This document shows, one piece after another, positions 11,935 to 64,000 of a stretch of DNA of 64,000 nt. Both the position numbers and the translations under genes were made by a program. Numbering within the stretch: the first letter of the stretch is position 1; each line of letters opens with the position of its first letter. Under the pieces are notes generated by a model. The model was not told the origin of the DNA, did not search any database, and was given only the letters and a program-made list of their open reading frames with translations. The DNA lies in contig JAVXOZ010000008.1 in the NCBI GenBank assembly GCA_036644995.1, forward strand, positions 5,838-69,837, written 5' to 3'. The DNA comes from Clostridiales bacterium. Lineage in GTDB: Bacteria > Bacillota > Dehalobacteriia > UBA7702.

Positions 11935-12070
11935 GGCTGTTGATAAAGTCTGATATTCGGCAAAATCCCTTCCCACCGACTGCTTATGTACGTCTATGTA
12001 CATAAGCAGTCGCTGCTCAGGGAGTTTTACCGAATCTAAGGCTTTCTTAACAGCCTGACAGATTGTTTGG
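11935..12070 (+). repeat. Intergenic structured repeat element, copy 1 (3' tail diverged)
   Basis: GGCTGTTGATAAAGTCTGATATTCGGCAAAATCCCTTCCC...CTGCTCAGGGAGTTTTACCGAATCTAAGGCTTTCTTAACAGCC. A long imperfect outer inverted repeat encloses a perfect 14-bp palindrome, GACTGCTTATGTAC/GTACATAAGCAGTC. The same core recurs at 19304, 43797, 46648 and 63970. Confidence 0.75.
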
Positions 12071-12132
12071 ATACATTTTTTTATACTGAACTTCTGTTAT
12101 GAATAGTATTTGTAAAATAAAGTAATAAATAA

Positions 12133-15100
12133 TTATCGTATACATTTTGCCAAAGTAGCGTATAGCTGTTGCGGCTCTATGGGTTTTGCCAAGTGTTCGT
12201 TCATTCCTGCGGCAATGCTTTTTTGAACATCTTCCGCAAAGGCATTGGCTGTCATGGCGATAATGGGAATGGTTTTTCCTTGGGGGTGTTGGGATTTGCG
12301 TATGGCATCTGTAGCTTCATATCCATTCATAACAGGCATTTGAATATCCATTAAAATGGCATCAAAGGAGCCCGGCTTACTTTTGGTAAATATATTGAAA
12401 CCTGTTTCACCATTATTTGCCATGGTAACAGTAATGCCTTGTTTTTCTAAAATTCTTTTGGCAACTAATTGGTTTACCGAGTGATCCTCGCAAAGGAGTA
12501 TCCGCATACCTGCTAAATTTAAAGATTCCGGAGGAATATCTTTATCTGCTTGTTTTGGGGCTTGTTTTTCCGTAAAACGCAAAGGCAGTTCAATTACAAA
12601 AGTTGTGCCAATTCCCGGTATGCTACTGAGGGAAATGGTGCCACCCATATAGTCCACAATGCTTTTCACAATGGATAATCCCAGTCCTGCTCCTTCCACA
12701 TTTGATGTCATGGAATTTTCTGCACGGTAAAATGGCTCAAATATATATTTTTGTTGTTCTGCACTTATGCCAATACCATTATCTGAAATTTCAAAGCGAT
12801 AAAGACCTATATTTTTGTTTTCCAATGCCGATTCTGAAAGATGATAGGTAATTTTACCACCCTCAGGGGTAAACTTCAGGGCATTGGCAAGTATATTATC
12901 CACAATTCTGTGAATCCGCATAATATCACCACTGCAACAATCGTGGGTAATATCTAAATCCATCTCAATAATTTGGTGCTTTTTACTTGCTAAAGCCCGT
13001 GCCCTGGCTGCGGCAATTTGCAGTTGTTCTGAAATTGAAAAAGAGGAATTTGCCAGTACCATTTTGCCGCTTTCAATTCTGTTCATATCTAAAATATCAT
13101 TTATTAAGAAAAGCAGTAGCCCTGAAGATTGCTGAATTACCTCTAAGCTTTCATGTATTTGTTCTGCATTGCTTTCATCGGCAATAGCCAAATTGCACAT
13201 ACCAATTATGGCATTCATCGGCGTTCTGATATCATGGCTCATGGAGGCAAGAAATTTTGATTTTGAGTTGTTTGCTTGTTGAGCAATGGTAAGTGATTCG
13301 GATAACGCAATTTTTTGCTTTTCTTCTTGGGCAAGTATATCCGTTACATCCGCACGGCTAAAAACCACAATTCCCGCATCTTTATCATGGGTGGCAAAGC
13401 GAGCTTGCTTGGTGCGGATTTCGCCATTTGGTTCTTTAAGGTGGTAGGTAAATTCATAGCTATCTTTATTTTTTAGCTGTTCCATTACATTTTTTATGGA
13501 CATATTTTGTAGGTAAAGTGCTTTATCTTTTTTTGTTATAAAGTTTTTTGCGGTAAGGGCTATTGTGTCAGTGTAAGTATAGGGAACACCATCTTTATAT
13601 TCTTGCAGTTCCGAATTTTGAATTTTGCTGTTATAGAATACGGTGGTATTTGAATGTAAATTTAAGTGTGCCACATAGTCATAGTCAAATTGTATTACAG
13701 AGTCCAGTACCTGCTCTTGGATTTTTTTTGCAGTAACATCGGTAACTGTTAAAAAGCCAATGAGTTCATTGGTTTCCGGTTGTAATACCGTATCAACATG
13801 GGTAGAAATCCAGCTGATACCCTTGTTTTTACCAAGGCTAATGGTGCAATCATAGTTTTGTTGGCTAATGCCCAAATCAAAGCTGCTTTTTATATTTTCG
13901 TTTAAAAAGGTTTTGCAAAATATTTTTTGCTGTTCCTTATTGGGAATTAGTGAAGCAATACCCCTAAAAAAATCTTCACGCACCATACCAAAGCGTTTTT
14001 CCAGGTTTAAGCCGGTTTTATCGTTTATTTCAATGATTTTATTTTGGGTTAAATTGCAGTGTCCCGCTAAAATAACATTTTCCCCCAATGTGTTATAACG
14101 ATATTTTATGGCATTATTATACTTTTGCTTTACTTCCACTTGGTCTGTTACATCAACGGCACTACCCAACGCATATATAGGTTTTCTGTCTCGGTTTGGT
14201 AAAACCGTATAGGTACAGCGTTTCCAAACGTATTTTTCCGTGCGAGCGTCCCATAAACGTATTGTGGTGGATACTTGGTTTTCACCATTATGAAGTTTTT
14301 TGTAAAAATCACGAAATGCCTCGGCATCATTGGGGTAGCATAACTTTTGCTCAATAAGTGTTTCCGGTATGTTGGGGATTTTCATATTGTGAATGCCATA
14401 GATATCTTCAGTATTATGATTTTGAATGATGGTATGCTCTTGAATATCGTACATCCATGAATCAATTTTATTTTGTTCTAAAACCGTGGCAAAACGGTTT
14501 TCAAGTTCTTTATATTCGTTGATGCTTTCTGCGGTAGCAACTGCCCAAACAGCTTTGCCGTATTCATCAAATATTGCGGTAAATCTGGTTCTTTTCCATA
14601 TTAAATCACCATTGGCATTAATGGTTTTAATATCCGCCATGGCAGTGGGTTGCCCATGTTTTATAGCTTCCACCAAGGAATCGTACAACTCTATACTATC
14701 TTGGTGTATAGCCCCGGATTCATAAAGACTTGTAGGGTAATTTTCAATAATTTTATTTAGGGGATATTCCTTTGTGGAAATGGAGTTCAGATAGGCTCTG
14801 TTGTTTAAAATATCATATTCCCAATAAGCAAGACCTGCATGATCAATGGCAGCCGTTAGTTTTTTTCTGGTTTTGTTAAGCTCAAATTGAGCTCGTTTTT
14901 GCTCGCTGATATCCACAAATACACAGTAGAAAAAATTTCCTTCTGCTTTATTTTCTAAAAGCTGTCCATTAATTAAAATCCATTTTATGGTTCCATCTTT
15001 GCAAATTACTCTTTGTTCATGTTTTACAGATGTTGTGCCTGTGCCCAGCTGTGCGGAAATATCTGAAAAAACTTCGGGCAAATCATGGGGATGAATAACA

Positions 15101-16341
15101 GCAGACATTTTATTGCCCATAGCGGCAAATTCTGCTCGGGTATATCCTAAAAACTCAAACAGACCGTCATTAGCAGAAATAACAGTCCAGTTTTCATCAA
15201 ATTTACAGCGAAATACTGCACCGGGTATATTATTGTATATCTGTGTAATTTCATTGTTAGCTTTTTTTTCTTCGGAAATATCTGAAAGGTATATAACGTA
15301 GGAGGGGACACCCCGCCATTTTATGGCATGGGAATCTACAAAATAATATTTTTCTAAAAAATCAACATAGATTTCATTGCCTTTACCTTCATTATTGCTG
15401 GGATATGCTATACATTCTTCACAGGGCTTATCAAAATTTTTCAAAGCACGATAGCATTTTTTTCCTATAAAATCATGAATATTAACCTTTGCCAGAATTT
15501 GCTCCATCTCGTTATTGGCATACAATAGCTTGTGGGAATTTTCTTCTATCACATAAACACCATTGGTTGAATGGTGTACAATATCGTAATACAATTGGGA
15601 TTCATCGGACATTCCCACCAAAATTATATACCAAAGGGGAATACCATCTTTTTCCCCAATAATTTTAGCACTTAATTGCAGCCAAGTTACATATCCATCT
15701 TGGCAATAACAACGAACAGAGGTGGTTTTTACGGGGTTTTCCCGATTCTCATCATATATTATATTTAAAATTTTCTCTCTGTCTTCTTCATATATTACGT
15801 TTAAGGTATCATCTTTTATATGTTCTCTGTATTCTTCTTCGGTATAACCCAATAAAGATGCAACACCGACTGTAAAAGATATGGTTTTTATTTTTCTGTC
15901 TATTCCTTGGCAAACAGAAATGCCACCGGGAATGGCATCAATGAGGTATTTATTAAGTTCTTCATTTTCTTTTTGTTTGGATAAATCATAATAAGTGGAA
16001 AGAATGAAATCCTTTCCATCGGGAATAGCTACTTGTTTACCCCTATCCTGCACCCATATGTAACTACCATCTTTTTTGCGAATGCGATATTCAATGGTAT
16101 ATTTTTTGGCATCTGCCAACTGTTTATTCATGCTATTTATAATAAATTCAATATCATCGGGGTGAATGCAATTTATCATATTACCATTTATGGTATTTTT
16201 AAATTCTTCTTCAGAATCATAGCCAAAATAGTCTAACATTTTTTTACCAATATAGTAGTATGGAAAGCCTGTATCCATATATCGTATTATTAAGCTGTCC
16301 GAAATTACTTCATCCAGCAAATTATCATAATTATTACTCAC
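12133..16341 (-). CDS. Hybrid sensor histidine kinase with multiple PAS/PAC domains, HisKA-HATPase and a C-terminal receiver domain
   Basis: H-box HDIRTPMNAIIGM, G-boxes, and a C-terminal REC with DAILMDIQMP. N-terminal repeats of PAS-like about 120-aa units. The likely start is GTG/ATG at 16341-16347 with an AAGGTG RBS, overlapping the XRE stop. Confidence 0.85.
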   Translation of the reverse strand: MSNNYDNLLDEVISDSLIIRYMDTGFPYYYIGKKMLDYFGYDSEEEFKNTINGNMINCIHPDDIEFIINSMNKQLADAKKYTIEYRIRKKDGSYIWVQDRGKQVAIPDGKDFILSTYYDLSKQKENEELNKYLIDAIPGGISVCQGIDRKIKTISFTVGVASLLGYTEEEYREHIKDDTLNVIYEEDREKILNIIYDENRENPVKTTSVRCYCQDGYVTWLQLSAKIIGEKDGIPLWYIILVGMSDESQLYYDIVHHSTNGVYVIEENSHKLLYANNEMEQILAKVNIHDFIGKKCYRALKNFDKPCEECIAYPSNNEGKGNEIYVDFLEKYYFVDSHAIKWRGVPSYVIYLSDISEEKKANNEITQIYNNIPGAVFRCKFDENWTVISANDGLFEFLGYTRAEFAAMGNKMSAVIHPHDLPEVFSDISAQLGTGTTSVKHEQRVICKDGTIKWILINGQLLENKAEGNFFYCVFVDISEQKRAQFELNKTRKKLTAAIDHAGLAYWEYDILNNRAYLNSISTKEYPLNKIIENYPTSLYESGAIHQDSIELYDSLVEAIKHGQPTAMADIKTINANGDLIWKRTRFTAIFDEYGKAVWAVATAESINEYKELENRFATVLEQNKIDSWMYDIQEHTIIQNHNTEDIYGIHNMKIPNIPETLIEQKLCYPNDAEAFRDFYKKLHNGENQVSTTIRLWDARTEKYVWKRCTYTVLPNRDRKPIYALGSAVDVTDQVEVKQKYNNAIKYRYNTLGENVILAGHCNLTQNKIIEINDKTGLNLEKRFGMVREDFFRGIASLIPNKEQQKIFCKTFLNENIKSSFDLGISQQNYDCTISLGKNKGISWISTHVDTVLQPETNELIGFLTVTDVTAKKIQEQVLDSVIQFDYDYVAHLNLHSNTTVFYNSKIQNSELQEYKDGVPYTYTDTIALTAKNFITKKDKALYLQNMSIKNVMEQLKNKDSYEFTYHLKEPNGEIRTKQARFATHDKDAGIVVFSRADVTDILAQEEKQKIALSESLTIAQQANNSKSKFLASMSHDIRTPMNAIIGMCNLAIADESNAEQIHESLEVIQQSSGLLLFLINDILDMNRIESGKMVLANSSFSISEQLQIAAARARALASKKHQIIEMDLDITHDCCSGDIMRIHRIVDNILANALKFTPEGGKITYHLSESALENKNIGLYRFEISDNGIGISAEQQKYIFEPFYRAENSMTSNVEGAGLGLSIVKSIVDYMGGTISLSSIPGIGTTFVIELPLRFTEKQAPKQADKDIPPESLNLAGMRILLCEDHSVNQLVAKRILEKQGITVTMANNGETGFNIFTKSKPGSFDAILMDIQMPVMNGYEATDAIRKSQHPQGKTIPIIAMTANAFAEDVQKSIAAGMNEHLAKPIEPQQLYATLAKCIR

Positions 16342-16591
16342 AAGCATCACCTTTTTCCTGTTTTTCTTTGTGGTGGAACAAAGCAGCTTCCAAATCCTGC
16401 AACAGTTCTTCTGAGGCTCCTTTTTCTTTTGCCAAGGCAAATACTGTTACAGAAGCCAAGGGATTTGGTTTTGCACGTTGGTTTTCCCAGCGATTTATGG
16501 TGGAAAAACTAAGATGGAGTGCCGTGGCAATTTCCATTTGGGTCATACCTATTTCCTCTCGTACTTTTTTTAATATCTCATAAAGTTCCAT
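16334..16591 (-). CDS. XRE-family helix-turn-helix transcriptional regulator
   Basis: MELYEILKKVREEIGMTQMEIATALHLSFSTINRWE is a Cro/C1 HTH. GAGAGGTG RBS lies upstream. Its TAA stop overlaps the histidine kinase start, suggesting translational coupling. Confidence 0.7.
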   Translation of the reverse strand: MELYEILKKVREEIGMTQMEIATALHLSFSTINRWENQRAKPNPLASVTVFALAKEKGASEELLQDLEAALFHHKEKQEKGDACE

Positions 16592-17105
16592 TTTGCACCT
16601 CTCAAATTTCATAGCTAAAGCTATATAGCGTTCTCTATATAATACTATGAAAAATACATTGATTTGTCAAGAGAAAACACAAATTATAGGTAAAAGTATA
16701 TCAATTTAAGCACAGAGAATAAAATATTTGCAAAATATAGATTTAATTATGGTGAATAATCACAGTAAATCAAAGTTGTACTTTGTGTATTTTAAAAAAA
16801 CTTTTTTATCTTTGATTACCGCAATGTATAATATTTAATATAAACCCTATATTTATGGGATGTATTTTATCGTATTAACTATAAATTTAAAAAATAACTC
16901 GAAAAAAGTCATAATAAGTTGTATTTTTTTAGATATTTGTTATAATAAAGTAAATGCTTATAATATTTTAAAGAATAAAGCTAATATAAAAAGTAGAGTT
17001 ACAAACCCAAGGTTTTTTCAAAATTTTTGTAGTTTATTATTAATAAATCATATCAACGGTGCATATAAAGTAAAGCTAAAAAAGTTATTTAGGAGGTAAT
17101 TTTTT

Positions 17106-17834
17106 GTGAATATAGCCATAGTGGATGATTCCAATAGTGATTGCTTTCAATTAATCAACTTTTTAACAAAATATAGTAATGAAAATGCACTTTTACTCAC
17201 AATAAATAGTTTTGAAAATGGTGAAAAATTTCTAAACAGTGGAAATCTATCAAAGATAGATGCTATTTTTTTGGATATTTATATGGATAAAGTAAATGGT
17301 ATGGAGGTTGCCCAAGAAATTAGAAAACAAGGGTTAAGCTGCAATATTATTTTTACCACTACCTCTGAATCCTTTGCTGTGCAAAGCTATGAAGTCCGGG
17401 CATTTGACTATTTGGTAAAACCTATAACATATGAAAAAATAGATAAGGTTATGGGCTTGTTGGATAAAAGCACCAATGCTTCTTCCCATTTTATTATAGT
17501 AAAAGAAGGACGTGAACTGCGCAGAATTTTAGTTTCAGATATTATATATGCAGATTATCATAATCATTATGTACAAATACACACAGATAAATATGTTATA
17601 AGCACCTATAAAAAATTTGGGGATTTTGAAGAAGAATTATTGAATTACAAATCATTTGTAACCTGCTATCGCTGTATTTTAGTTAATATGAATAAAATAG
17701 AAAAAGTAGAAGAAGGCTTTTTTTTAATGAAAAATGGTGAATATGTGCCCATAAATCGTAATAGAGCAAGGGAAATAAAAAATCGCTATATAGATTACAT
17801 CTTTGGGGAAATGGAGATAGATGCAAATGTTTGA
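17106..17834 (+). CDS. LytTR-family response regulator (AgrA/ComE-like)
   Basis: N-terminal receiver (IAIVDD...FLDIYMD) plus a C-terminal LytTR DNA-binding domain. GTG start with GGAGG RBS. Overlaps the downstream kinase by 14 nt. Confidence 0.85.
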   Translation: MNIAIVDDSNSDCFQLINFLTKYSNENALLLTINSFENGEKFLNSGNLSKIDAIFLDIYMDKVNGMEVAQEIRKQGLSCNIIFTTTSESFAVQSYEVRAFDYLVKPITYEKIDKVMGLLDKSTNASSHFIIVKEGRELRRILVSDIIYADYHNHYVQIHTDKYVISTYKKFGDFEEELLNYKSFVTCYRCILVNMNKIEKVEEGFFLMKNGEYVPINRNRAREIKNRYIDYIFGEMEIDANV

Positions 17835-19164
17835 TTATGAAGTTTTACTGTATATTGGTCAAGCGTTTTTTAATCTTTCCGTTTACACTTTTTTTGTTTT
17901 AAAGGCTTTTGAGCATAATCTTAAATATAACAAAAAAATTACCATGATTTTTGCCTGTATTTATGTTATTTTTTCCGTTGCAATCATTGAATTATGTTGT
18001 GAAGATATAGCTCCTTTTAAAATATATGCGCCCTTTGCCATGATTTTGTGGGCTGTGGTATCTATTTTATTTGCTCGTATTAATTTTAAAGCCAACGTTA
18101 TGCAGCTAATATTTTTTGTTTTTGCAATTTTTGATATCTCTTTTAATGTGATGATGGTTTCCAGGGCTATTGTTGCTTCAGATATTTTATCAAGTTTTAT
18201 CGCCGGTGATAATATTGCGTTTTTATTAACTTCAATAATTATATTAATTTTGATAATACCTTTTTTGTGGTATCTTTGCGTTAATCTCTTTCAAAGGGCT
18301 ATTAGTTTGGATATTAGTGCTGCTTATTGGAAACAGCTGTTTATCTTGCCATTATCCTATTTTCTGTTCGCTTGGCTGGCTGTAAAAAGTGCTTTCCCCA
18401 TTGAGGTAATTACACCTTTTAATTTACTGCTGATACTATTTTTTCTTAATGTAAGTTCATTCCTTTCCTATGTGGCGGTATTGCAAATGTTAATAAAAAC
18501 TCACGATAGTTTAAAAGCCACAGAAAAAGCCAATCTTTCTGAGCAAATGAATATGATGCAGAAAAAACAATATAATGATATGGCAAATAACATTGTTAAA
18601 ACCAATAAATTACGCCATGATTTTCGCCATCACTTAATAGCCATAAGAGGTTATGCCCAAAGCGGGGATTTGGAAGGCTTAAACCGGTACTTGGATGAAT
18701 ACCAAAAAGATAGTTTTCCCAATGAAGATACTCCTGTTTGCAGTAATTATTTTGTGGATATAATTCTCCGCCACTATATTGGCCAAGCCAAAGCCATGGG
18801 TATACGGGTGAATGTAGCTACAAAAGATTTAGGTGATTTTGAGCTGGCGGATACCGACCTTTGTTTGGTATTTGGAAATTTATTTGAAAATGCCATAGAA
18901 AGCTGTGAGCGTCAAAAAAGTGGAGATAAGTTTATAGATATAAAAACAAAAAGCATAAGCAAAAGTATGTTGGCAATTACTGTAACCAATAGCTATGGTG
19001 ACATAATTACCACAAGAGGAAAATTGTTTTTATCAAACAAACATGAAAATGAGGGTATTGGCATTGCCACAATACAATCAATAGCCGAAAAAAACGGTGG
19101 CAGTTGCCAGTTAAGCTTTGAAAATGGTGTTTTTAAAGCAAATGTATTATTGGTAGCAAAATAA
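17821..19164 (+). CDS. HPK10-type (AgrC/ComD-like) membrane sensor histidine kinase
   Basis: About 6 TM helices, H-box-like RHDFRHHL and a GHKL ATPase C-terminus (GIGIATIQSIAEKNGG). Confidence 0.8.
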   Translation: MQMFDYEVLLYIGQAFFNLSVYTFFVLKAFEHNLKYNKKITMIFACIYVIFSVAIIELCCEDIAPFKIYAPFAMILWAVVSILFARINFKANVMQLIFFVFAIFDISFNVMMVSRAIVASDILSSFIAGDNIAFLLTSIIILILIIPFLWYLCVNLFQRAISLDISAAYWKQLFILPLSYFLFAWLAVKSAFPIEVITPFNLLLILFFLNVSSFLSYVAVLQMLIKTHDSLKATEKANLSEQMNMMQKKQYNDMANNIVKTNKLRHDFRHHLIAIRGYAQSGDLEGLNRYLDEYQKDSFPNEDTPVCSNYFVDIILRHYIGQAKAMGIRVNVATKDLGDFELADTDLCLVFGNLFENAIESCERQKSGDKFIDIKTKSISKSMLAITVTNSYGDIITTRGKLFLSNKHENEGIGIATIQSIAEKNGGSCQLSFENGVFKANVLLVAK

Positions 19165-19303
19165 AAAGTCTATTATTGCTGAAACATATATTGTTTACCC
19201 AAAAGTTTTGATTTGCCATAAACGGTTTTGGATTACGGTATCCCACATATATATTTGAATAAATGTTTTACAGGCATGTAAATTGCAAAATTTAATGCCT
19301 TTA

Positions 19304-19462
19304 GGCTGTTGATAAAGTCTGATATTCGGCAAAATCCCTTCCCAGCCACTGCTTATGTACATCTAAGTACACTGCACAGCCGCTGCTCAGGGAGTTTTAC
19401 CGAATCTAAGTCTTTCTTAACAGCCTAACATCTTGCCAAAAAACTATATTTTTGACAATCTG
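19304..19462 (+). repeat. Intergenic structured repeat element, copy 2
   Basis: Same about 160-bp element as at 11935, ending ...CTTGCCAAAAAACTATATTTTTGACAATCTG. Confidence 0.8.
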
Positions 19463-19651
19463 AGGGTATATAAATTGTAATGCCCTGTTTTTTATATTAT
19501 TTTTTTGTCAATGGTTGTGCTCCCTAAAAATAAAATATATTTCAGTGATACTTGAGATGTGGCAGTTGTATTTATGCAGCAACCATTTTTTTTTGGTTTG
19601 ATGTGGGGATATATGGCTTTTTGTCAGATTATATTATAGGTTTCAATATAA

Positions 19652-19780
19652 AAAAACCTATATGCCCATTTATATTATGGTTCTAAATATAGAAAAAGAC
19701 CTATATGTCCCTTTATATCATGGTTCTAAATATAGAAAAAGACATGTATGCCCATTTATATCATGGTTTTAAATATAGAA
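19652..19780. repeat. Tandem repeat of about 43 bp, 3 units plus a diverged 4th unit that forms the terminator hairpin
   Basis: Units AAAGACCTATATGYCCMTTTATATYATGGTTYTAAATATAGAA at 19652, 19695 and 19738. The unit at 19781 begins identically but its 3' half folds into a hairpin. Confidence 0.8.
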
Positions 19781-19782
19781 AA

Positions 19783-19821
19783 AGACCTATTTCCCTTTAA
19801 CGGAAAATAGGTCTTTTTTTT
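19783..19821 (-). terminator. Hairpin with U-runs on both strands (bidirectional rho-independent terminator) at the 3' end of the tRNA cluster
   Basis: AGACCTATTTCC-CTTTAAC-GGAAAATAGGTCT followed by T8 on the plus strand and a T-rich run on the minus strand. It lies immediately 3' of tRNA-Gln. Confidence 0.7.
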
Positions 19822-19895
19822 GGCTGGGGTGGCTGGATTCGAACCAACGAATAGCGGCTCCAAAAACCGCTGCCTTGCCACTTGGCGACACCCCA
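19821..19895 (-). tRNA. tRNA-Gln (anticodon TTG)
   Basis: Manual fold of the reverse complement TGGGGTG...CCA gives anticodon stem GCGGT/GCCGC, loop TTTTGGA and a T-arm GGTTCGAATCC. Confidence 0.8.
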
Positions 19896-19930
19896 ACGAT
19901 GGGTTTATATTAAATTTAGTTGAATACATA

Positions 19931-20007
19931 TGGGGTGAGTGATGGGATTTGAACCCACGAGTGCCGGAGCCACAATCCGGTGCGTTAACCGCTTCGCCAC
20001 ACCCACC
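19931..20007 (-). tRNA. tRNA-His (anticodon GTG)
   Basis: Reverse complement GGTGGGTG... carries the extra 5' G characteristic of tRNA-His, with anticodon loop TTGTGGC. Confidence 0.8.
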
Positions 20008-20017
20008 ATAAAAAAGT

Positions 20018-20094
20018 TGGCGCGCCTGCAGGGACTCGAACCCCGGGCACACGGATTAGAAGTCCGTTGCTCTATCCACCTGAGCTACAGGCGC
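20018..20094 (-). tRNA. tRNA-Arg (anticodon TCT)
   Basis: Reverse complement GCGCCTGTAGCTCAGGTGGATAGAGCAACGGACTTCTAATCCGT...CGCGCCA, with anticodon loop CTTCTAA. Confidence 0.8.
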
Positions 20095-20235
20095 AAAACT
20101 TAAAACGTAACGAGTTTATTATACTGAATTTTTCAATATTTTGCAAGGGGTTATTGTGATTTTTTAATATTAAATTTGCAGGCATATTTCTCAATAAGAG
20201 AAATAAAATACCGAAAATTCGGTATTTAAAAAATC

Positions 20236-20309
<74 letters not shown>

Positions 20310-20356
20310 ATGACTTTATATATTATATATGTTTTTTGTCTTAAGGTCAATACCTT

Positions 20357-42901: not shown

Positions 42902-42949
42902 TGGTTCTATACTAAATATTGTGGTGTATGATATAAGCTTTATAAAAAG
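42902..42949 (+). repeat. 46-bp motif copy B (tggttctatactaaatattgtggtgtatgatataagctttataaaaag)
   Basis: Near-identical to 2843-2888. It also lies directly 3' of a terminator. Confidence 0.6.
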
Positions 42950-42968: not shown

Positions 42969-43748
42969 TTATTCGCTCATGGTTATTAATTGGTCTATGC
43001 GGTTTTTGGCTTCTACTAAAAATTCTTTTTCATTTTTGTAAATTTCGGTATTGGCAATTAGCTCCATGGTGTAGGGAATATTTCTATTTTTTATCAGTGG
43101 TATAATTTTAGTGAAATCTATTTCGCCGTCAAAGGGTAACCAATGTCTATCTTTAATGCCATCGTTATCTGAAAGATGATAAGCGGATAAAAGTTTATTG
43201 TATTTTTCCAGCAAGTAAAATTCATCTCTGAGATTGGCGTGGGATGTATCAAAGCAAAAGCCCAATTCTTTTACGGGAAATTCTGCCCACACTGCTTCTA
43301 AATAATCACTGCGCCAGGTATTTTCCAAGGATAGCACTGTATTGTTGGCTTGAGCTACAGGGATAAGTGCCTCAATACTTTTAAGCAAGCTTTTGTTGGG
43401 TGCAGGTACCTCGCCTTTTTCACATAAATGCAACACCAAATTATGTAAATTGTAATCTGCCATTTCTTCAATGGTGCGGCAAATTGGCTCAAGGTGCTTT
43501 TTGCGTTTAAGGTTATCTTCACTCCATATAGCGTTATCATCACACCCGGACATATGGATGTTAAAAATATCTAAATCCATAGCCCTTGTGTTTTTTACCA
43601 TTTCTGAACAGGTGATGGGCCATGAGCATACTTCATCTTCCCACCAAATCATTATTCCGTCAAAGCCGGTTTCTTTAATTAATTCAATGCGTTGATTAAA
43701 ATCTGTAAAGAAACCATACCAACTAAAAATTCCGGTTTGTTCTGACAT
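42969..43748 (-). CDS. Sugar phosphate isomerase/epimerase (xylose-isomerase-like TIM barrel) family protein
   Basis: 259 aa with conserved His/Asp/Glu pattern (HLCEKG, DTSHANL) of the AP-endonuclease-2/TIM-barrel family. Confidence 0.55.
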   Translation of the reverse strand: MSEQTGIFSWYGFFTDFNQRIELIKETGFDGIMIWWEDEVCSWPITCSEMVKNTRAMDLDIFNIHMSGCDDNAIWSEDNLKRKKHLEPICRTIEEMADYNLHNLVLHLCEKGEVPAPNKSLLKSIEALIPVAQANNTVLSLENTWRSDYLEAVWAEFPVKELGFCFDTSHANLRDEFYLLEKYNKLLSAYHLSDNDGIKDRHWLPFDGEIDFTKIIPLIKNRNIPYTMELIANTEIYKNEKEFLVEAKNRIDQLITMSE

Positions 43749-43796
43749 TGTTTTGCCTCTATTCTTTGAAATATAGTAAATATCCAGGCTGTTGAT

Positions 43797-43945
43797 AAAG
43801 TCTGATATTCGGCAAAATCCCTTCCCATCCGCTGTTTATGTACATTTAGGTACATAAGCATCCACTGCTCAGGGAGTTTTACCGAATCTAAGTCTTTCTT
43901 AACAGTCTGGCATCTTGTCAAACAACTATGTTTTTTGACAATCTG
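43797..43945 (+). repeat. Intergenic structured repeat element, copy 3
   Basis: Same element. The inner palindrome GCTGTTTATGTAC/GTACATAAGCATCC is nearly intact. It ends in TTTTTTGACAATCTG. Confidence 0.8.
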
Positions 43946-43967
43946 AATATGTTGATTATTTTATTGA

Positions 43968-46516: not shown

Positions 46517-46647
46517 ATGCGGTAATAAATTTAGAATCAGTGGTTTTTTATTATTTTTGATGTACTTAATATTTAAAAAAATAACCCCTTGTTGCAGTAT
46601 TATATTAGTAATATATTACTTTACAACAAGGGGTATTTTATAGTGCA

Positions 46648-46807
46648 GGCTGTTGATAAAGTCTGATATTCGGCAAAATCCCTTCCCACCCACTGCTTAT
46701 GTACATTTAGGTACACTGCACAGTCGCTGCTCAGGGAGTTTTACCGAATCTAAGGCTTTCTTAACAGCCCGGCATCTTGCCAAAAAACTATGTTTTTTGA
46801 CAATCTG
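46648..46807 (+). repeat. Intergenic structured repeat element, copy 4 (most complete; the 3' tail carries an outward TTGACA-N17-TATATA)
   Basis: GGCTGTTGATAAAGTCTGATATTCGGCAAAATCCCTTCCCACCCACTGCTTATGTACATTTAGGTACACTGCACAGTCGCTGCTCAGGGAGTTTTACCGAATCTAAGGCTTTCTTAACAGCCCGGCATCTTGCCAAAAAACTATGTTTTTTGACAATCTG. Confidence 0.8.
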
Positions 46808-46851
46808 TTTTATAGTGTTTATATAATTGATATTAAGTTTTTAAAGAATTT

Positions 46852-55311: not shown

Positions 55312-55336
55312 TCGCTGTTGCTTATAAGGTGAATCA

Positions 55337-55681
55337 ATGCACGAATTTCCAATTACCCAACAAATTATAAAATTAGCTGAAAAGCACGCAAAGGAAAACG
55401 GTGCTTCTGCTGTAACCAAGGTAAACTTGGTTGTAGGACTGTATTCAGGTTTCATTGGTGAAAGTATACAAATGTATTTTGATGTTATTGCAGAAGGTAC
55501 TCTTTGTGAAAATGCCACCATTGAAATAAAAGCCGTTAAGCCAAAGTTAAAATGCAGTAAATGTGGTGAACTTTTTGAAAGACAGCCTATGTCTTTTAAA
55601 TGCCCCTATTGTGATGGCGAAGGTGAACCCACAAAAATTGGAAAAGAATTCTATATTGATTCCATAGAAATTGAAGCATAA
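55337..55681 (+). CDS. hypA: Hydrogenase nickel incorporation protein HypA
   Basis: MHEFPI N-terminus and CxxC...CxxC zinc site (CSKCG...CPYCDG). 114 aa. Confidence 0.9.
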   Translation: MHEFPITQQIIKLAEKHAKENGASAVTKVNLVVGLYSGFIGESIQMYFDVIAEGTLCENATIEIKAVKPKLKCSKCGELFERQPMSFKCPYCDGEGEPTKIGKEFYIDSIEIEA

Positions 55682-55737
55682 TTTATGGGGCAGGTGATTA
55701 TCGCCTGCCCCATAATTCCTTTAAAAGGAGAAGAAAG

Positions 55738-56394: not shown

Positions 56395-56425
56395 TACAGA
56401 ATTTATAGGAAAGGGGGCTTACGCC

Positions 56426-58747: not shown

Positions 58748-58931
58748 AATTCAAGGGCATAGGGCTAAGGTAGATTTTAGCGGTACCGTAGTTAATGCCA
58801 ATGTAATGATGGTAGATGCCAAAGTTGGTGAATACGTATTGGTTCATGCAGGTTGTGCCATTGAGGTACTTTCTCAAAGCCGTGCTCAGGAATTAATGTC
58901 TATTTTTGATGAAATGGAAGCGGATATATGA
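58716..58931 (+). CDS. hypC: Hydrogenase assembly chaperone HypC
   Basis: MCIAMPGKIVEI N-terminus (MC[LI][AG][IV]P signature), 71 aa. Confidence 0.9.
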   Translation: MCIAMPGKIVEIQGHRAKVDFSGTVVNANVMMVDAKVGEYVLVHAGCAIEVLSQSRAQELMSIFDEMEADI

Positions 58932-59971
58932 ACAGCGCAGAGGTTATAAATTATCTAAAAGAATACCAAGGCAGGGAAATAAAATTAATGGAAGTTTGCG
59001 GAACTCATACCTCGGCAATTTTTAAAAATGGTATCCGTTCACTGATTTCTCCAAAAATTAAGTTAATTTCAGGCCCCGGTTGTCCCGTATGTGTTACCCC
59101 GGCTGCTTATATAGATAAATGTATTGAATATGCAAAAAAAGAAAATCATGTGCTATATACATTTGGTGATATGATTAAAGTAACAGGCACTACTCAAAGT
59201 TTAGCCATGGCTAAAGGTGAAGGTGCCAAAGTGGAGCTAATGTTTTCCCCTGTGGAAGTGGTGGAAAAAGCAAAAAATAACCCCCAAACCACTTTTGTTA
59301 TTGCTGCGGTGGGTTTTGAAACCACAATCCCCACATATTCCGTAGCATTGGAAGAAGCCTTGTCACAGGGTGTAAAAAATATTAAGTTGGTTACGGCATT
59401 AAAAACCGCATTGCCTGCTTTAGATTGGATATGTGCCAATGAAAAGGGTATAGATGGTTTCATTTGTCCCGGGCATGTCAGCGTTATTACAGGCAGTGAA
59501 ATATATGCAGATTTGGCAGCAAAATATAAAAAGCCTTTTGTGGTTGCAGGTTTTGAGGGCGAACATCTTTTGGCTGTGATTTATGATTTGGTGAAACAAA
59601 TTGAAAATAATACAAGCGAAGTTGAAAATCTTTACCAAAATGCAGTAAAAACCAATGGTAATATAAAAGCTTTAACTTTAATTGATAAGTACTTTATACC
59701 GGGAAATGCCATGTGGCGAGGTTTGGGTATTATACCTGATTCGGGTATGTATTTAAAGGAGCAGTATAGCCAATATGATGGTGGCAGTTTTGGTCTTGAT
59801 AAAGATGTGGAATTGCCAAAATCTTGCAGATGCTCCGAGGTGATAGTTGGGCGCATAAATCCCAATCAGTGCCCTATGTTTGGTAAATCATGCAACCCCA
59901 CCAACCCTTATGGTCCATGTATGGTATCAGCGGAAGGTGCTTGCGGTATTTGGTACAGAAATATAATTTAG
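58928..59971 (+). CDS. hypD: Hydrogenase maturation factor HypD
   Basis: CGTHTS, GPGCPVC and CPVC motifs, 347 aa. Confidence 0.9.
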   Translation: MNSAEVINYLKEYQGREIKLMEVCGTHTSAIFKNGIRSLISPKIKLISGPGCPVCVTPAAYIDKCIEYAKKENHVLYTFGDMIKVTGTTQSLAMAKGEGAKVELMFSPVEVVEKAKNNPQTTFVIAAVGFETTIPTYSVALEEALSQGVKNIKLVTALKTALPALDWICANEKGIDGFICPGHVSVITGSEIYADLAAKYKKPFVVAGFEGEHLLAVIYDLVKQIENNTSEVENLYQNAVKTNGNIKALTLIDKYFIPGNAMWRGLGIIPDSGMYLKEQYSQYDGGSFGLDKDVELPKSCRCSEVIVGRINPNQCPMFGKSCNPTNPYGPCMVSAEGACGIWYRNII

Positions 59972-59995
59972 TAAAGAAAACTGATGAGGTACGTA

Positions 59996-60976
59996 ATGAA
60001 AATAACAATGGCACATGGCAGTGGCGGTAAATCTTCTGCGGAATTGATGCAACAAATTTTCGGCAAACACTTCAGTAATGAAATATTGAACAAAATGGAA
60101 GATGCTGCTGTTTTGGAAATTAATGGTAAAATAGCTTTTAGCACTGATTCTTTTGTGGTAACGCCTACAATTTTTAAGGGTGGAGATATTGGTAAATTAG
60201 CTGTTTGCGGCACAGTTAACGACCTTTTGATGATGGGGGCAAAGCCTCTTTATCTCACCTCAGCCTATATTTTAGAAGAAGGCTTGGAATTGGAAAAGCT
60301 GGATATTATTGCGGAATCTATGGCTAAAACAGCTAAAGATGCAGGGGTAAAGATAGTGGCAGGTGATACCAAAGTGGTGGAAGGCAATGGCGGTTTAATG
60401 ATAAATACCACAGGTATTGGCATTATACCCCAAGATAGAGATATCAGTGCGGCAAATTTAAAACCCGGGGATGCGGTTATAGTTTCCGGCTTTTTAGGGG
60501 ATCACCATGCTTGTATCCTCAGTGCCAGAATGGAATTGGAAAATAATATAAAAAGTGATTGTGCTCCTTTAAATTCCATTGTTGATTCACTTTTTCAATG
60601 TGGTGTGCAAGTAAAGGCAATGCGTGATGTAACCCGTGGTGGTCTTGGTACCATGCTTAACGAATTGGCAAATACATCGGGCACCGCCATTGAAATAGAA
60701 GAAAAAAATATTCCTGTGCGTGATGATGTGCGTGGCTTTTGTGATATACTGGGCTTAGACCCTCTCTATATGGGTAACGAAGGTAAAATGCTGGTAGTGG
60801 TTGAGGGGGAAGATGCCAATAAAGCTTTGGCACAAATAAAAAGTACAGAGTTGGGCAAAGATGCTCTTATTTTAGGTTATGTAAAATCCGGAAAAGGCGT
60901 AACTATGAAAACCAGGCTTGGGGGCACAAGGGTTGTGGATATGCTTTACGGTGAAGGCTTGCCCAGAATTTGTTAA
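59996..60976 (+). CDS. hypE: Hydrogenase maturation factor HypE
   Basis: AIR-synthase-like fold, MAHGSGG N-terminus and a C-terminal PRIC with the conserved terminal Cys. Confidence 0.9.
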   Translation: MKITMAHGSGGKSSAELMQQIFGKHFSNEILNKMEDAAVLEINGKIAFSTDSFVVTPTIFKGGDIGKLAVCGTVNDLLMMGAKPLYLTSAYILEEGLELEKLDIIAESMAKTAKDAGVKIVAGDTKVVEGNGGLMINTTGIGIIPQDRDISAANLKPGDAVIVSGFLGDHHACILSARMELENNIKSDCAPLNSIVDSLFQCGVQVKAMRDVTRGGLGTMLNELANTSGTAIEIEEKNIPVRDDVRGFCDILGLDPLYMGNEGKMLVVVEGEDANKALAQIKSTELGKDALILGYVKSGKGVTMKTRLGGTRVVDMLYGEGLPRIC

Positions 60977-60988
60977 AGGAGAATTAAC

Positions 60989-61882
60989 ATGAATAAAAAA
61001 ATGCTATTTCTTTTTAACCCCAAAGCGGGTAAAAGTTCTATAAAAAACAGTCTTTCCGATATTTTAAATATATTTACCGTAGGGGGGTACGATTTAATGG
61101 TGCACCCCAGTCAAGCTCCTATGGATATGGAAGAATTTGTAACCCAACGTGGTAAGGAATTTGATGTTATTGTAACCTGCGGTGGAGATGGCAGCTTAAA
61201 TGAAACCATAAATGGTTTGATGCAGTTAGATAATCCGCCGCCATTGGGCTATATACCCACAGGCACAATGAACGATTTTGCCGCCAGCCATAATATTTCT
61301 AAAAATATGTTGGTTGCTGCCAAAGATATTGTCAGAGGCAAAATTGCAAGAACGGATATTGGTAAATTTAACGACCATTATTTTTCTTACGTTGCGGCTT
61401 TTGGTGCATTTACCGATGTTTCTTACGGTACTCCCCAGGAAAGCAAAAATGTTTTTGGCAAAAATGCTTATATTTTAGAGGGTATTAAAAGAATACCAAC
61501 TTTGGCATCTTATCATATTATTTTGGAGTATGAAGATAAAATAATGGAAGATGATTTTATCTATGGGATGATGAGCAACTCTATTTCCATAGGCGGAATG
61601 AAAATGGCAAAAAAGACTGCGGTTTCCATGAATGATGGTTATTTTGAAGTAAATTTGGTAAAAAAAGAACTTAGCGATTTTTTTAATGCCACCACGCTTT
61701 TGGGTGCGGTAATCAGCTTGGATTTAATAAATAATAAGTCCTTATTTAGCTTTAAAGCAAAAAAAATAACCGTTCGCCATAAGGAGGGGTTATCTTGGAC
61801 TCTGGATGGTGAATTTGGTGGTGTATGTACTGAAGCTGTTATTGAAAGCAAAAAAGAAGCTTTGGAAATTTTTGTGCCCTGA
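60989..61882 (+). CDS. Diacylglycerol kinase catalytic-domain lipid kinase (YegS/DagK family)
   Basis: GGDGSLNE motif, 297 aa. Confidence 0.8.
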   Translation: MNKKMLFLFNPKAGKSSIKNSLSDILNIFTVGGYDLMVHPSQAPMDMEEFVTQRGKEFDVIVTCGGDGSLNETINGLMQLDNPPPLGYIPTGTMNDFAASHNISKNMLVAAKDIVRGKIARTDIGKFNDHYFSYVAAFGAFTDVSYGTPQESKNVFGKNAYILEGIKRIPTLASYHIILEYEDKIMEDDFIYGMMSNSISIGGMKMAKKTAVSMNDGYFEVNLVKKELSDFFNATTLLGAVISLDLINNKSLFSFKAKKITVRHKEGLSWTLDGEFGGVCTEAVIESKKEALEIFVP

Positions 61883-61956
61883 TAAAACCAATTTTTTTAA
61901 CTAATTTTTTATAAAAGAATAATTATTGGTAGTTAAATTTTATTTAGTTGCAATCA

Positions 61957-61989
61957 ATTCCCAACAAAAAACTGTTGGGAATTTTTTTG
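61957..61989 (+). terminator. Rho-independent terminator after the lipid kinase gene
   Basis: ATTCCCAACA-AAAAAC-TGTTGGGAAT followed by T7. Confidence 0.8.
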
Positions 61990-62018
61990 TATATTTAAAA
62001 ACTACACAGGGCAAAATA
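61989..62018 (+). promoter_or_regulatory. Putative forespore sigma-F/G-type promoter of spoVA genes (GTATA-N18-CAAAATA)
   Basis: Resembles the sigma-G consensus (-35 GHATR, -10 CATNNTA). The spoVA operon is sigma-G dependent in Bacillus. Confidence 0.4.
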
Positions 62019-62053
62019 GCTTTGTATGTTTAATTATCTTTGGAGGTTTAATT

Positions 62054-62548
62054 ATGAATGATATATTAAAAGATTCTTTAGCAAAAGAATTGGAAAAAGC
62101 CCAAAAAATATCTTACGAAGATTTAGTTAAAGAAACTAAGCCAAAAACTCCATATTTTAAGAATATGCTTTTTGCATTTTTGATTGGGGGATTAATTTGC
62201 GCTATTGGTCAAATCTGCTTGGAGATTTTTTTATTTTGGGGCTTTACGGAAAAATTGGGGGTAACTTTATCTTTAATTACCCTTATTTTTTTAGGTGCTT
62301 TATTAACAGGGTTGGGACTTTACGATAAAATAGGAAAATATGCCGGGGCAGGCTCTATTGTGCCTATTAGCGGCTTTGCAAACTCCATGGTGGCACCTGC
62401 CATGGAATGGCGTTCCGAGGGCTATATTTTGGGTTTGGCAGTTAAAATTTTCACATTGGCGGGGCCTGTAATTGTTTATGGAATTTGTGGTTCTGTTATC
62501 CTGGGCTTAATAAAATACATTTATTGGTTTATTAAAGGTGGTTGGTAA
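62054..62548 (+). CDS. spoVAC: Stage V sporulation protein AC (SpoVAC/SpoVAEB family membrane protein)
   Basis: 164 aa, 4 TM, conserved GSIVPISGFANSMVAPAMEWRSEG block. Confidence 0.85.
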   Translation: MNDILKDSLAKELEKAQKISYEDLVKETKPKTPYFKNMLFAFLIGGLICAIGQICLEIFLFWGFTEKLGVTLSLITLIFLGALLTGLGLYDKIGKYAGAGSIVPISGFANSMVAPAMEWRSEGYILGLAVKIFTLAGPVIVYGICGSVILGLIKYIYWFIKGGW

Positions 62549-63578
62549 AATGATAGAAAAAAGCAAAAAAAATAATACCATACAATACAAGCATGGTGTT
62601 TATATTGCACAAGGCAGCAGTGCAGTGGGTCCCAAAGAAGGCGCAGGGCCCATCGGTAAATCCTTTGATAAAGTATATACCACTATTCATGGAGGGGAAG
62701 AAACATGGGAAAATTTTGAATGCAAGCTTCAGTTGGATGCAGTTACCACAGTGATGAAAAAAAATATGATGACCGCCGATGATTTTGGCTTTATTCTCGG
62801 GGGTGATTTGTTAAATCAAATTATGATAACAAATTTTACCGCTAAAGAACTGGAAATTCCATATTTAGGATTATATAATGCCTGTGCCACCATGGCAGAA
62901 GCAATGGTTATTGGTGGTATGTTAATAGATGGGGCATATGCAGATAATTTGCTGGTGGTAGCATCAAGCCACAATGCCACTTCGGAAAGGCAATACAGAA
63001 ATCCCACGGAATTAGGTGCACAAAGACCCCAAACTGCCCAATGGACAGTGACCGGTGCAGGTGCGATGATATTATCAACTACACCATCGGATATTAAAAT
63101 AACAGCAGCTACCATTGGTAAAGTACGGGATTTTGGAGTTAAAGACCCTAACCAAATGGGAGCAGCCATGGCTCCGGCGGTGTTTAGTACCATTAAAGAC
63201 CATTTTAAAAATACCAATACTTCTGTGTGTGATTATGATTTAATTTTAAGTGGCGATCTTGGTTATCATGGTCATAAAATTTTATTGGCTTTATTTCAGG
63301 GTGAAGGCTTTGAGGTTGGTGCACAAATTCAAGATAGCGGCATTTGGATTTATCACAGTAAACAGGATGTCCATAGCGGCGGTAGTGGTGCAGGGTGTAG
63401 TGCTGCTGTTTGGGCATCATACTTATTATCTGAAATAAGAAAAGGAAAGTATAAAAAAATATTATTGGCAGGTAGCGGTGCATTGTTAAGTCCTACTTCT
63501 TTACAGCAGGGAAATTCTATTCCTGCTATATGCCATGTCGTTTCTTTAATAAACCAGGAGGTAGGCAGTGTTTTATAA
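62538..63578 (+). CDS. spoVAD: Stage V sporulation protein AD (thiolase-fold)
   Basis: 346 aa. Overlaps spoVAC. Confidence 0.85.
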   Translation: MVGKMIEKSKKNNTIQYKHGVYIAQGSSAVGPKEGAGPIGKSFDKVYTTIHGGEETWENFECKLQLDAVTTVMKKNMMTADDFGFILGGDLLNQIMITNFTAKELEIPYLGLYNACATMAEAMVIGGMLIDGAYADNLLVVASSHNATSERQYRNPTELGAQRPQTAQWTVTGAGAMILSTTPSDIKITAATIGKVRDFGVKDPNQMGAAMAPAVFSTIKDHFKNTNTSVCDYDLILSGDLGYHGHKILLALFQGEGFEVGAQIQDSGIWIYHSKQDVHSGGSGAGCSAAVWASYLLSEIRKGKYKKILLAGSGALLSPTSLQQGNSIPAICHVVSLINQEVGSVL

Positions 63579-63930
63579 TATATTATTAGCTTTTTTGGTA
63601 GGTGGTTTAATATGCTTAATTGTGCAAATTATTATGGATACCACGCCGTTTTTTATTAGCACTGCCCATGTTTTGGTGGCATTGGTTTTAACCGGTGAAA
63701 TATTAAGCTTTTTTGGTTTATACCGTCCCTTTATTAATTTTGCATCTATGGGGGCTTCTGTGCCCTTATGTGGCTTTGGCAATACCTTAATGGAGGGTGT
63801 GGTAAGTGATTTAAAAGCTGATGGCTTAATTGGCTTGTTAACCGGAGGGTTTAGTGCAGGTGCTTCGGGGTTAGGTGCAGCTATTCTTTTTGGCTATTTT
63901 GTAGCCGTGATTTTTAAGCCCAAAGGTTAA
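63568..63930 (+). CDS. spoVAE: Stage V sporulation protein AE (SpoVAEB)
   Basis: 120 aa, 4 TM, paralogous to SpoVAC (GASVPLCGFGNTLMEGV). Confidence 0.85.
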   Translation: MFYNILLAFLVGGLICLIVQIIMDTTPFFISTAHVLVALVLTGEILSFFGLYRPFINFASMGASVPLCGFGNTLMEGVVSDLKADGLIGLLTGGFSAGASGLGAAILFGYFVAVIFKPKG

Positions 63931-63969
63931 ATTAGTTTAAATACTAAATGCAATTAAACTAATTCCACA

Positions 63970-64000
63970 GGCTGTGGATAAAGTCTGATATTCGGCAAAA
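63970..64000 (+). repeat. Intergenic structured repeat element, copy 5 (truncated by window end)
   Basis: GGCTGTGGATAAAGTCTGATATTCGGCAAAA matches the 5' end of the element. It is preceded by an AT-rich hairpin AATTAGTTTAA...TTAAACTAATT. Confidence 0.6.

Follow-up and report, generated by a model that had tools for sequence, protein, structure and literature searches.

A probable miniature transposable element of a gut Clostridiales bacterium duplicates its targets, including whole terminator hairpins

A roughly 160-bp sequence that recurs between the genes of an uncultured gut Clostridiales bacterium is, in all probability, a non-autonomous, non-coding MITE-like transposable element that duplicates its target, copying the whole stem-loop where the target is one. 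The central evidence is a site that is empty in one strain and filled in others, together with duplicated stem-loops around further copies and around an element with shared termini in a Ruminococcaceae genome.

Results

Eight copies share one orientation

The survey covered about 91 kb of one species, including the 64-kb window (the whole stretch of DNA that was analysed, 64,000 nucleotides); the sequences are metagenome assemblies, in which repeat interiors can be chimeric. A pattern search with the 31-nt left arm gave five matches in the window, all on the + strand (11935, 19304, 43787, 46648 and 63970; none expected by chance), and the right arm matched four times. The five co-oriented copies of the original prediction were thus recovered, except that the third, which had been placed at 43797, starts at 43787 (43785 with the terminal YA). 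All five are intergenic, as had been proposed, and the neighbouring genes run both ways. The copies and their flanking repeats are as follows.

c1, 11933..12062, + strand: short form with the tail hairpin deleted; 37 nt upstream of the start codon of minus-strand cas3
c1 flanking direct repeat TTGTTTGGATA, left 11922..11932, right 12063-12073: perfect, 11 bp
c2, 19302..19462, + strand: canonical long form, 161 bp
c2 duplicated hairpin, left copy AGGCAT...ATGCCT, 19272..19300: T-tract absent (direct sequence reading)
c2 duplicated hairpin, right diverged copy AGGGTAT...ATGCCCT, 19463..19500: followed by the T-tract GTTTTTTATATTATTTTTTT (direct sequence reading)
c3, 43785..43945, + strand: long form; 36 nt upstream of the start of a minus-strand AP_endonuc_2 gene
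c4, 46646..46807, + strand: long form; flanked by the spoIIR stop codon on one side and a minus-strand terminator-like hairpin on the other
c4 flanking direct repeat TTTTATAGTG, left 46636..46645, right 46808-46817: perfect, 10 bp
c5, 63968..64000, + strand: cut by the window end
c5 flanking repeat ATGCAATTAAACTAATTCCA, left 63948..63967, right 13113-13131 of contig L008: imperfect, 20 bp, itself a small inverted repeat

The sequence of c1 is identical in three other MAGs, and c5 is complete in other contigs, as a short form in L008 (12980-13112) and as a long form in L019 (8238-8396). Three further copies lie just past the right end of the window: c6 and a tandem pair, c7a and c7b. The total is eight copies at seven independent sites in ~73 kb (~1 per 10 kb), all in one orientation. 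MAG contigs of the species repeatedly end inside the element.

The shared orientation that had been noted in the window is therefore real over seven independent sites (2 x 0.5^7 = 0.016). An ordinary DDE MITE does not predict it, and we count it against our main reading. GC skew in the window tracks gene orientation and gives no direction of replication.

Anatomy of the element

Because the target duplications described below define them, the ends of the element are fixed: YAGGCTGTTGATAAAG on the left and GTTTTTTGACAATCTG on the right, which form imperfect terminal inverted repeats. CAGGCTGTTGATAAAG and the reverse-complemented right end, CAGATTGTCAAAAAAC, agree at 11 of 16 positions, a modest terminal repeat that we also counted against a MITE. 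The canonical form is non-coding and 160–161 bp long, and sizes across forms range from 130 to 161 bp. Six-frame translations matched no protein among 5.8 billion sequences, and concatenated six-frame peptides, searched against the protein collection to locate further copies, gave no matches. Like a MITE, the element is small (<300 bp) and lacks coding capacity.

Most of the element is an internal 120-nt hairpin, which owes its existence to a second copy of the left end, inverted and roughly 78% identical, within the element; a small A/T hairpin also lies between the termini. The arms are nearly invariant among copies (41 nt are identical in four of them), and both ends carry outward −35-like hexamers, TTGACA on the right and TTATCA on the left. 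Tail-less copies are deletion derivatives: they lost the sequence between the short direct repeats TGRCA...TGACA. The original prediction had described a long outer stem, a CCC/GGG clamp, an inner palindrome and an A/T tail hairpin with TTGACAATCTG, as well as a missing tail in c1 and a TTGACA-N17-TATATA in c4. All of these are present, and only the palindrome loop of c1, given as GTCTA, needs amending to GTCTAT (6 nt).

Insertion duplicates the target, including entire stem-loops

The c7 site provides a direct comparison of alleles. In GCA_036648935.1 (L111/L009) the site is empty, and its one hairpin scores as a terminator whichever strand is read. In GCA_036643835.1, GCA_036642995.1 and GCA_036655535.1 it is filled (the filled-allele loci include L116 and L121), and the allele reads hairpin, c7a, hairpin, c7b, hairpin-TTGTTTAAATTT. 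Therefore, insertion duplicates about 30 bp, a whole stem-loop, and the element is mobile within the species. A second candidate for an empty site, in a strain without c3 (L002), was rejected: its entire left flank has been swapped for a different island.

Flanking repeats at the other copies measure 10–30 bp and are mostly inverted repeats. At c2, a ~30-bp terminator stem-loop is duplicated and the T-tract is kept only on the right copy. An inverted-repeat or terminator target is duplicated at c2, c5, c6 and c7 and at the Ruminococcaceae element described below; the flanking repeats are imperfect at c2, c5 and c6, and c3 has only AATAT and no convincing duplication. At stem-loop targets, the left end of the element directly adjoins the stem at its 3′ base. 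Insertion thus duplicates the target and, when this is a stem-loop, typically an intrinsic terminator, copies all of it (about 20–33 bp). That copies sit just after gene terminators had been remarked upon in the original prediction; the position is indeed the key clue, but its meaning was understated, since the element duplicates the terminators. The mobile, MITE-like identity that it listed among several is upheld by the terminal inverted repeats, the flanking target duplications and the site that is filled or empty between strains.

What would such an insertion do to transcription? As we read it from the sequence, the hairpin copy upstream is left without a T-tract, so that the element would become part of an intergenic transcript or 3′ UTR. 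The T-tract stays with the downstream copy, so that termination would be restored there.

An independent relative and the distribution of the element

A scan of all collected loci for pairs of ends with adjacent direct repeats recovered the known copies and one further element, in a Ruminococcaceae UBA6413 MAG (L063). It is 240 bp long with an unrelated interior and shares both termini: 18 of 21 left-end positions are identical, and the right end reads ...TTTTTTGACAATCT. It is flanked by a perfect 31-bp direct repeat, which is a terminator hairpin. Another pair of ends, 2.7 kb apart in L077, falls within genes and reflects chance.

The exact left-arm 20-mer had no match in 185,579 species genomes or in viral contigs; its single match in a GC-rich metagenome contig (L007) is due to chance. 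With an nhmmer profile of the element, neither 80 NAPRTase loci from related Clostridia nor 23 kb of sequence from the nearest species, reached via a GGDEF protein, gave a match.

Alternative readings of the copies

Uniform orientation and a long hairpin recall elements that move as single-stranded DNA. The original prediction had suggested a PATE from the IS200/IS605 family or a REP-like element; a PATE- or REPIN-like sequence moved by an IS200/IS605 TnpA or a RAYT (a Y1 HUH enzyme) would insert into the lagging-strand template and so acquire one orientation. The co-orientation of seven independent sites (eight copies) over about 73 kb agrees with this, as does the fact that orientation follows the chromosome and not the neighbouring genes. 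However, such elements make no target duplication, and the 10–31-bp duplications of unrelated sequence found here, including the one seen by comparing empty and filled alleles, already largely refute a Y1 origin. Moreover, the nucleotides that precede the left end vary (AT, TT, CC, GC, AC, GC, TT), which leaves no fixed tetra- or pentanucleotide target; the ends are inverted repeats and not two similar subterminal hairpins on one strand; and the Pfam annotations of the collected loci include no Y1 transposase. We consider this origin extremely improbable.

Could the copies instead encode a family of structured small RNAs, or act as RNA in cis, with the minus strand as the one that is read and the fold as the reason for their conservation? 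The folds are far more stable than those of shuffled sequence (z = −7.3 on the + strand and −9.3 on the − strand), and several one-sided changes stay paired through G-U on the minus strand. Wobble pairing had been thought to favour that strand only, but some G-T pairs of the outer stem work in favour of the + strand. Of 13 distinct copies, 10 fold more stably as the minus strand and two as the + strand, so the preference is inconsistent. A covariation test across copies, as the original prediction had proposed, scored 0.044 against 0.044 in shuffles (218 of 500 shuffles were as high), and a compensatory, double-sided change was seen at one pair only on either strand. No Rfam family matched at the gathering threshold or at E <= 10, in keeping with the earlier failure to recognise a named one, and consensus scans revealed no promoter or terminator of the element's own. 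If the copies are transcribed at all, their sense relative to neighbouring genes differs, and the inverted duplication of the left end explains the fold trivially. An RNA family, the last of the earlier suggestions, is thus very unlikely.

A once-mobile sequence may also have been kept by its host. It could stabilise or attenuate transcripts from their 3′ UTR, serve as a rebuilt terminator, bind a protein, organise the chromosome or supply outward promoters. The near-invariant arms and the uniform orientation would suit such a role, as would the location of c1 and c3, each 36–37 nt upstream of a start codon, and the promoter-like sites that the outward hexamers form with flanking sequence at c3 and c4 (at c4 by direct reading). 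Yet promoter-like sites are no commoner than in shuffled sequence, and the right-end TTGACA is mostly aimed into the 3′ ends of convergent genes. The element is also missing from the closest relatives that were examined, and within the species one of its sites is polymorphic; it therefore looks like a recent parasite and not a conserved host function, which we regard as very unlikely. An integron attC site was rejected, as the GTT/AAC core has reversed polarity and the intervening genes are, by direct reading, ordinary chromosomal genes in both orientations.

Discussion

What is the mechanism of insertion?

For the MITE-like element that we favour, a transposase supplied in trans would bind the termini and attack both strands where an extruded hairpin or cruciform has its base; attacks offset by only a few bp in space would then leave the entire hairpin duplicated in sequence. 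Our best guess for the enzyme, offered tentatively and by analogy, is an IS30-like "copy-out, paste-in" transposase, because IS1630 and ISMhom-1 are reported to show the same behaviour. No autonomous element with these termini was found in ~1.7 Mb of collected loci or in viral contigs, plasmids and phages, and tblastn with the E. coli IS30 transposase (InsI) gave no match in any of the collected loci. Matches to the termini pattern in viral contigs fall within coding sequence and reflect chance only; plasmids and phages, queried by blastn with the complete element and with either end, returned nothing or chance matches, and a match on a Lactococcus plasmid (H17) is an ordinary promoter region.

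Comparison with known elements

According to the accounts of IS30-family elements in PMC3317919 and PMC7648426, and to the title of Calcutt et al. 1999 as cited in PMC2853133, IS1630 of Mycoplasma fermentans and ISMhom-1 of M. hominis choose inverted repeats or rho-independent terminators as targets, and their insertion duplicates the inverted repeat in full. Their direct repeats are long and variable, 16–26 bp (PMC3317919, PMC7648426), much like the 10–33-bp repeats here, mostly stem-loops. The likeness is one of behaviour: these are autonomous Mollicutes elements of 1.2–1.4 kb with 27-bp inverted repeats and a transposase gene, whereas ours is a 160-bp non-coding element of a spore-forming Clostridiales. 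The ends of E. coli IS30 (TGTAGATTCAAT..GTCAA) weakly resemble the right end CAGATTGTCAA.

Long, variable direct repeats are also shared with IS1634 and IS1549 of the IS4 group, in which they are not known to be hairpin-defined. Class C group II introns have a similar preference for terminators and home to sites just after the stems, but they are retroelements of about 2 kb and are not known to make a duplication. IS200/IS605 PATEs and REP/REPIN-RAYT systems are likewise hairpin-rich, intergenic and multi-copy and can be orientation-biased; they have no target duplication, a fixed short target motif and no terminal inverted repeats, and our element differs in all three respects.

Among MITE-like repeats of Firmicutes is bcr1 of the Bacillus cereus group. 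RUP, BOX and SPRITE are MITE-like repeats of Streptococcus pneumoniae (PMC3049150). The likeness lies in the traits of these four repeats: they are non-coding, intergenic and highly folded, measure 100–200 bp, occur in many copies, mainly downstream of genes, are species-restricted and transpose slowly. Unlike the present element, RUP makes short TA-type target duplications and is tied to IS630-Spn1, and SPRITE is itself terminator-like. Duplication of a host terminator hairpin is reported for none of the four, and a 2024 review of MITEs contains no such case (PMC10969869).

Implications

Major concepts are unchanged by this finding. Hairpin-targeted insertion with duplication of a whole terminator has, to our knowledge, been documented only for a few IS30-type elements of Mycoplasma, and we know of no miniature element, and of no case in Clostridia, for which it has been reported. 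The termini YAGKCTGTTGAWAAAG / TTTTTTGACAATCTR may, as a speculation that we hold to be rather unlikely in full, mark an undescribed group of gut-Clostridia transposons. Their structure-specific transposase would cut extruded terminator hairpins at the base, perhaps in intermediates of transcription termination or replication, with an insertion orientation fixed relative to the chromosome and a high-density spread (about 1 per 10 kb) that rebuilds a working terminator behind the element. If this is true and the enzyme is not an IS30 relative, it would be a new solution to hairpin-targeted transposition. In practical terms, metagenome assemblies of this gut species break at the element, whose copies might be used as strain markers. 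With its empty, single and tandem alleles, the element is a clean natural case in which to study how DNA structure, and not sequence, is read by a transposase. It also illustrates how a parasite can occupy 3′ UTRs and yet leave termination in place.

Copies of the element and their anatomy

The copies are real and belong to a miniature transposable element that had no name before; it targets and duplicates terminator hairpins, an unusual habit like that of IS1630. Five matches to its 31-nt left arm, GGCTGTTGATAAAGTCTGATATTCGGCAAAA, lie in the window, each differing at no more than one position, where none is expected by chance; its right arm is present four times, the fifth copy being truncated by the window end. 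A pattern search placed the left arms as follows.

11935, + strand: copy c1
19304, + strand: copy c2
43787, + strand: copy c3
46648, + strand: copy c4
63970, + strand: copy c5

The five co-oriented copies of the original prediction were thus recovered, with the third starting at 43787 rather than at 43797, and all window copies are indeed intergenic. Contigs overlapping the right window end supplied the remainder of c5, a further copy about 1.2 kb on (c6) and another about 6.5 kb after c6 (c7), all in the same orientation as the others; the 6 kb preceding the window and the 12 kb following c7 hold no more copies. The orientation is the same at 7/7 sites (2 × 0.5^7 = 0.016), and the genes beside the copies run in both directions: c1 and c3 lie 36–37 nt upstream of minus-strand start codons, the other copies downstream of plus-strand genes or between convergent genes. 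GC skew in the window tracks gene orientation and did not reveal the direction of replication.

Comparison of the copies fixed the ends of the element: the base preceding AGGCTG is always Y and bases further outward vary, and long forms terminate ...TTGACAATCTG. The left end CAGGCTGTTGATAAAG and the reverse-complemented right end, which reads CAGATTGTCAAAAAAC, agree at 11/16 positions, forming terminal inverted repeats. Because the element also holds an inverted internal copy of its own left end (roughly 78% identical), it can form the 120-nt "outer stem". In the alignment, four copies are identical over a 41-nt block, the inner palindrome varies more, and a 45-nt tail follows that is missing from c1, as originally described. 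The tail-less copies c1, c5 and c6 retain just the first 8–9 nt of the right end (AGATTGYCA) and are most readily explained by deletion between the short direct repeats TGRCA...TGACA. The c5 site itself carries the long form with the tail hairpin in one metagenome-assembled genome (MAG; contig L019, 8240–8396) and the short form in the others (e.g., L008, 12982–13112). Thus, tail loss is a polymorphic deletion and defines no separate subfamily.

Two alleles of the inner palindrome exist, GTACATAAGCAG, which is perfectly palindromic, and GTACACTGCACAG; strains differ in which one they carry at the same insertion site, with identical flanks.

Window 46690–46735 versus contig L001 11675–11720: palindrome allele swap
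Contig L008 versus contig L009, at about 14300–14345: palindrome allele swap

These swaps could reflect gene conversion between copies, quasi-palindrome correction or chimeric MAG assembly. The window itself probably derives from a metagenome assembly, in which case the interiors of its repeats call for caution.

Insertion duplicates a hairpin

The c7 site, which is intergenic and has a GGDEF gene on one side and an S-layer gene convergent with it on the other, is polymorphic between MAGs. The empty allele (GCA_036648935.1) has one hairpin, GCCCCTATCGTAGTATCTACGATAGGGGTT, then GTTTAAATTT, and a terminator scan scored this hairpin as terminator-like on both strands. In the filled allele, found in three other MAGs, the element directly follows the hairpin. 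Contig L116 reads hairpin / c7a / AA-hairpin / c7b, and the far junction, from contig L121, reads c7b ...TTGACAAGCTG / AA-CCCCTATCGTAGTATCTACGATAGGGG-TTGTTTAAATTT, the original hairpin with its T-rich tail. Thus, comparison of the empty and filled alleles indicates that insertion duplicates the entire stem-loop, ~30 bp. This site has also gained a second element in tandem, with a hairpin of its own, and the hairpin-element unit is present twice.

L116 5423–5777 and L121 12080–12244, about 7.9 kb past the right window end: c7 tandem unit

The copies c7a and c7b carry common private substitutions, and in the middle hairpin a CTACGA to CTATGA change compensates for a G-to-A change in the opposite stem arm, so that the two pair again.

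The flanks of c1, c2, c4, c5 and c6 are consistent with this pattern: (i) a stem-loop of roughly 30 bp stands on either side of c2 in diverged copies, of which only the right one keeps the T-tract; (ii) c6 begins directly after a GGGGAGCT...AGCTCCCC hairpin and has a diverged half-copy on its opposite side; (iii) the imperfect 20-bp repeat around c5 also forms a small inverted repeat; and (iv) c4 and c1 are flanked by perfect repeats of 10 and 11 bp, respectively. No convincing repeat was found around c3. In every hairpin case the left end lies 0–3 nt from the 3′ base of the stem.

Structured RNA or transposon?

Both strands fold far more stably than shuffled sequence (−51 kcal/mol, z = −7.3 for the plus strand; −70 kcal/mol, z = −9.3 for the minus strand). 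The minus strand, from which any RNA was originally proposed to be read, is the more stable one in 10/13 copies, c3 and the long c5 being among the exceptions. Across 15 distinct sequences, 98% of cells pair because the sequence itself is conserved; the covariation score equals that of shuffles (0.044 vs 0.044, with 218/500 shuffles as high) and double-sided changes occur in one of 51 pairs. No Rfam family matches at the gathering threshold or at E ≤ 10, in line with the element's earlier description as unassigned, and consensus scans found no promoter or terminator of its own. No result speaks for selection on an RNA fold or for a gene in its own right, and transcription of the copies probably runs through from their neighbours, in either sense.

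Of the readings first offered, that of a MITE agrees with a non-coding element that has terminal inverted repeats and target duplications and is polymorphic between strains; its termini, moreover, are common to an unrelated element elsewhere (in contig L063). An IS200/IS605 or REP element would leave its target unduplicated, lie next to a fixed short motif and have no terminal inverted repeats. Each of these points was tested, and the duplications, variable flanks and terminal inverted repeats found here contradict such a mechanism.

How might a miniature transposon duplicate a hairpin? A transposase acting in trans would bind the termini and link them to both strands at the extruded hairpin's base, and a spatial stagger of just a few base pairs there would lead to duplication of the whole hairpin. 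The insertion behaviour published for IS1630 (IS30 family) matches this proposal, and ISMhom-1, of the same family, behaves likewise (PMC7648426). The likeness to both lies in the targeting and duplicating of terminator hairpins. Ordinary IS30 elements make 2–3-bp duplications, in agreement with a duplication of "stem-loop plus about 3 bp". Placed end to end with a 2–3-bp spacer, the right and left ends would create TTGACA-N16/17-GATAAA, the geometry of junction promoters in circle-forming IS families, IS30 among them. No IS30-like gene was found in any fetched locus, and no autonomous partner with the element's termini in plasmids, phages or viral contigs. We tentatively give an IS30-family source of the transposase somewhat less than an even chance.

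Host, distribution and neighbouring sequence

The window encodes type I-C CRISPR-Cas, SpoIIR, SpoVA proteins and an Ech-type hydrogenase at 36% G+C, and its host is therefore a spore-forming member of Clostridia. Identical proteins occur in NCBI MAGs labelled "Clostridiales bacterium" (GCA_0366xxxxx), whose contigs repeatedly terminate within the element, as is typical of repeats present in many copies. The closest species genome is a human-gut "Peptococcaceae bacterium" MAG (NAPRTase identity 81%). A 20-mer of the element had no match in 185,579 species genomes or in viral contigs, its sole JGI metagenome match was rejected as a chance match, and a profile search of 80 loci from related Clostridia, and of 23 kb from the closest species reached via a neighbouring protein, gave no match. 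Thus, on the data available, the element is restricted to one species.

Several other features of the window were noted.

2918–3878: CRISPR array of 15 repeats of 32 nt, ATTTCAATCCACGCACCTGTGAAGGTGCGAC
4023–11895, minus strand: type I-C cas operon (cas3, cas5d, csd1, cas7, cas4, cas1, cas2), adjoining the array
19629–19790: 43-bp tandem repeat TTATATCATGGTTCTAAATATAGAAAAAGACCTATATGCCCAT (3.8 copies, 87% identity), between c2 and a tRNA-Gln/His/Arg/Gly cluster (19821–20309)
2843–2869 and 42902–42928: 27-nt sequence TGGTTYTATACTAAATATTGTGGTGTA (26/27 positions identical), one copy beside the CRISPR array, the other between a MarR gene and an AP_endonuc_2 gene

With only 37 nt separating c1 from the downstream cas3 start codon, the element is part of the leader/promoter region of the cas operon. 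In one MAG (contig L002, 8500–8920, corresponding to window about 43700–43965), c3 and everything leftward are swapped for a segment with an Eco47II-type restriction-modification pair, ParB, DUF6017 and a 78-aa IS3-type HTH_Tnp_1 fragment; the breakpoint lies ~20 nt right of c3's end position.

An independent relative with the same termini

Scanning all fetched loci for the termini revealed a 240-bp element in a Ruminococcaceae MAG.

L063 5555–5792, minus strand: element starting CAGTCTGTTGAAAAAGTCTG and ending GGTTTTTTGACAATCT

Its G+C-rich interior is unrelated to the element studied here, and the perfect 31-bp direct repeat on either side of it, AATATCCGACATCGGAAAATGCCGGATATTT, is a terminator stem-loop. 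Another MAG, from Oscillospiraceae (L070, 14190–14245), contains a 55-nt stretch homologous to the left end of the 240-bp element, adjoining another terminator-like hairpin. The matches in these two MAGs thus indicate that the termini and the hairpin-duplicating habit define a wider family, to which the long internal hairpin does not extend, being peculiar to the element studied here.
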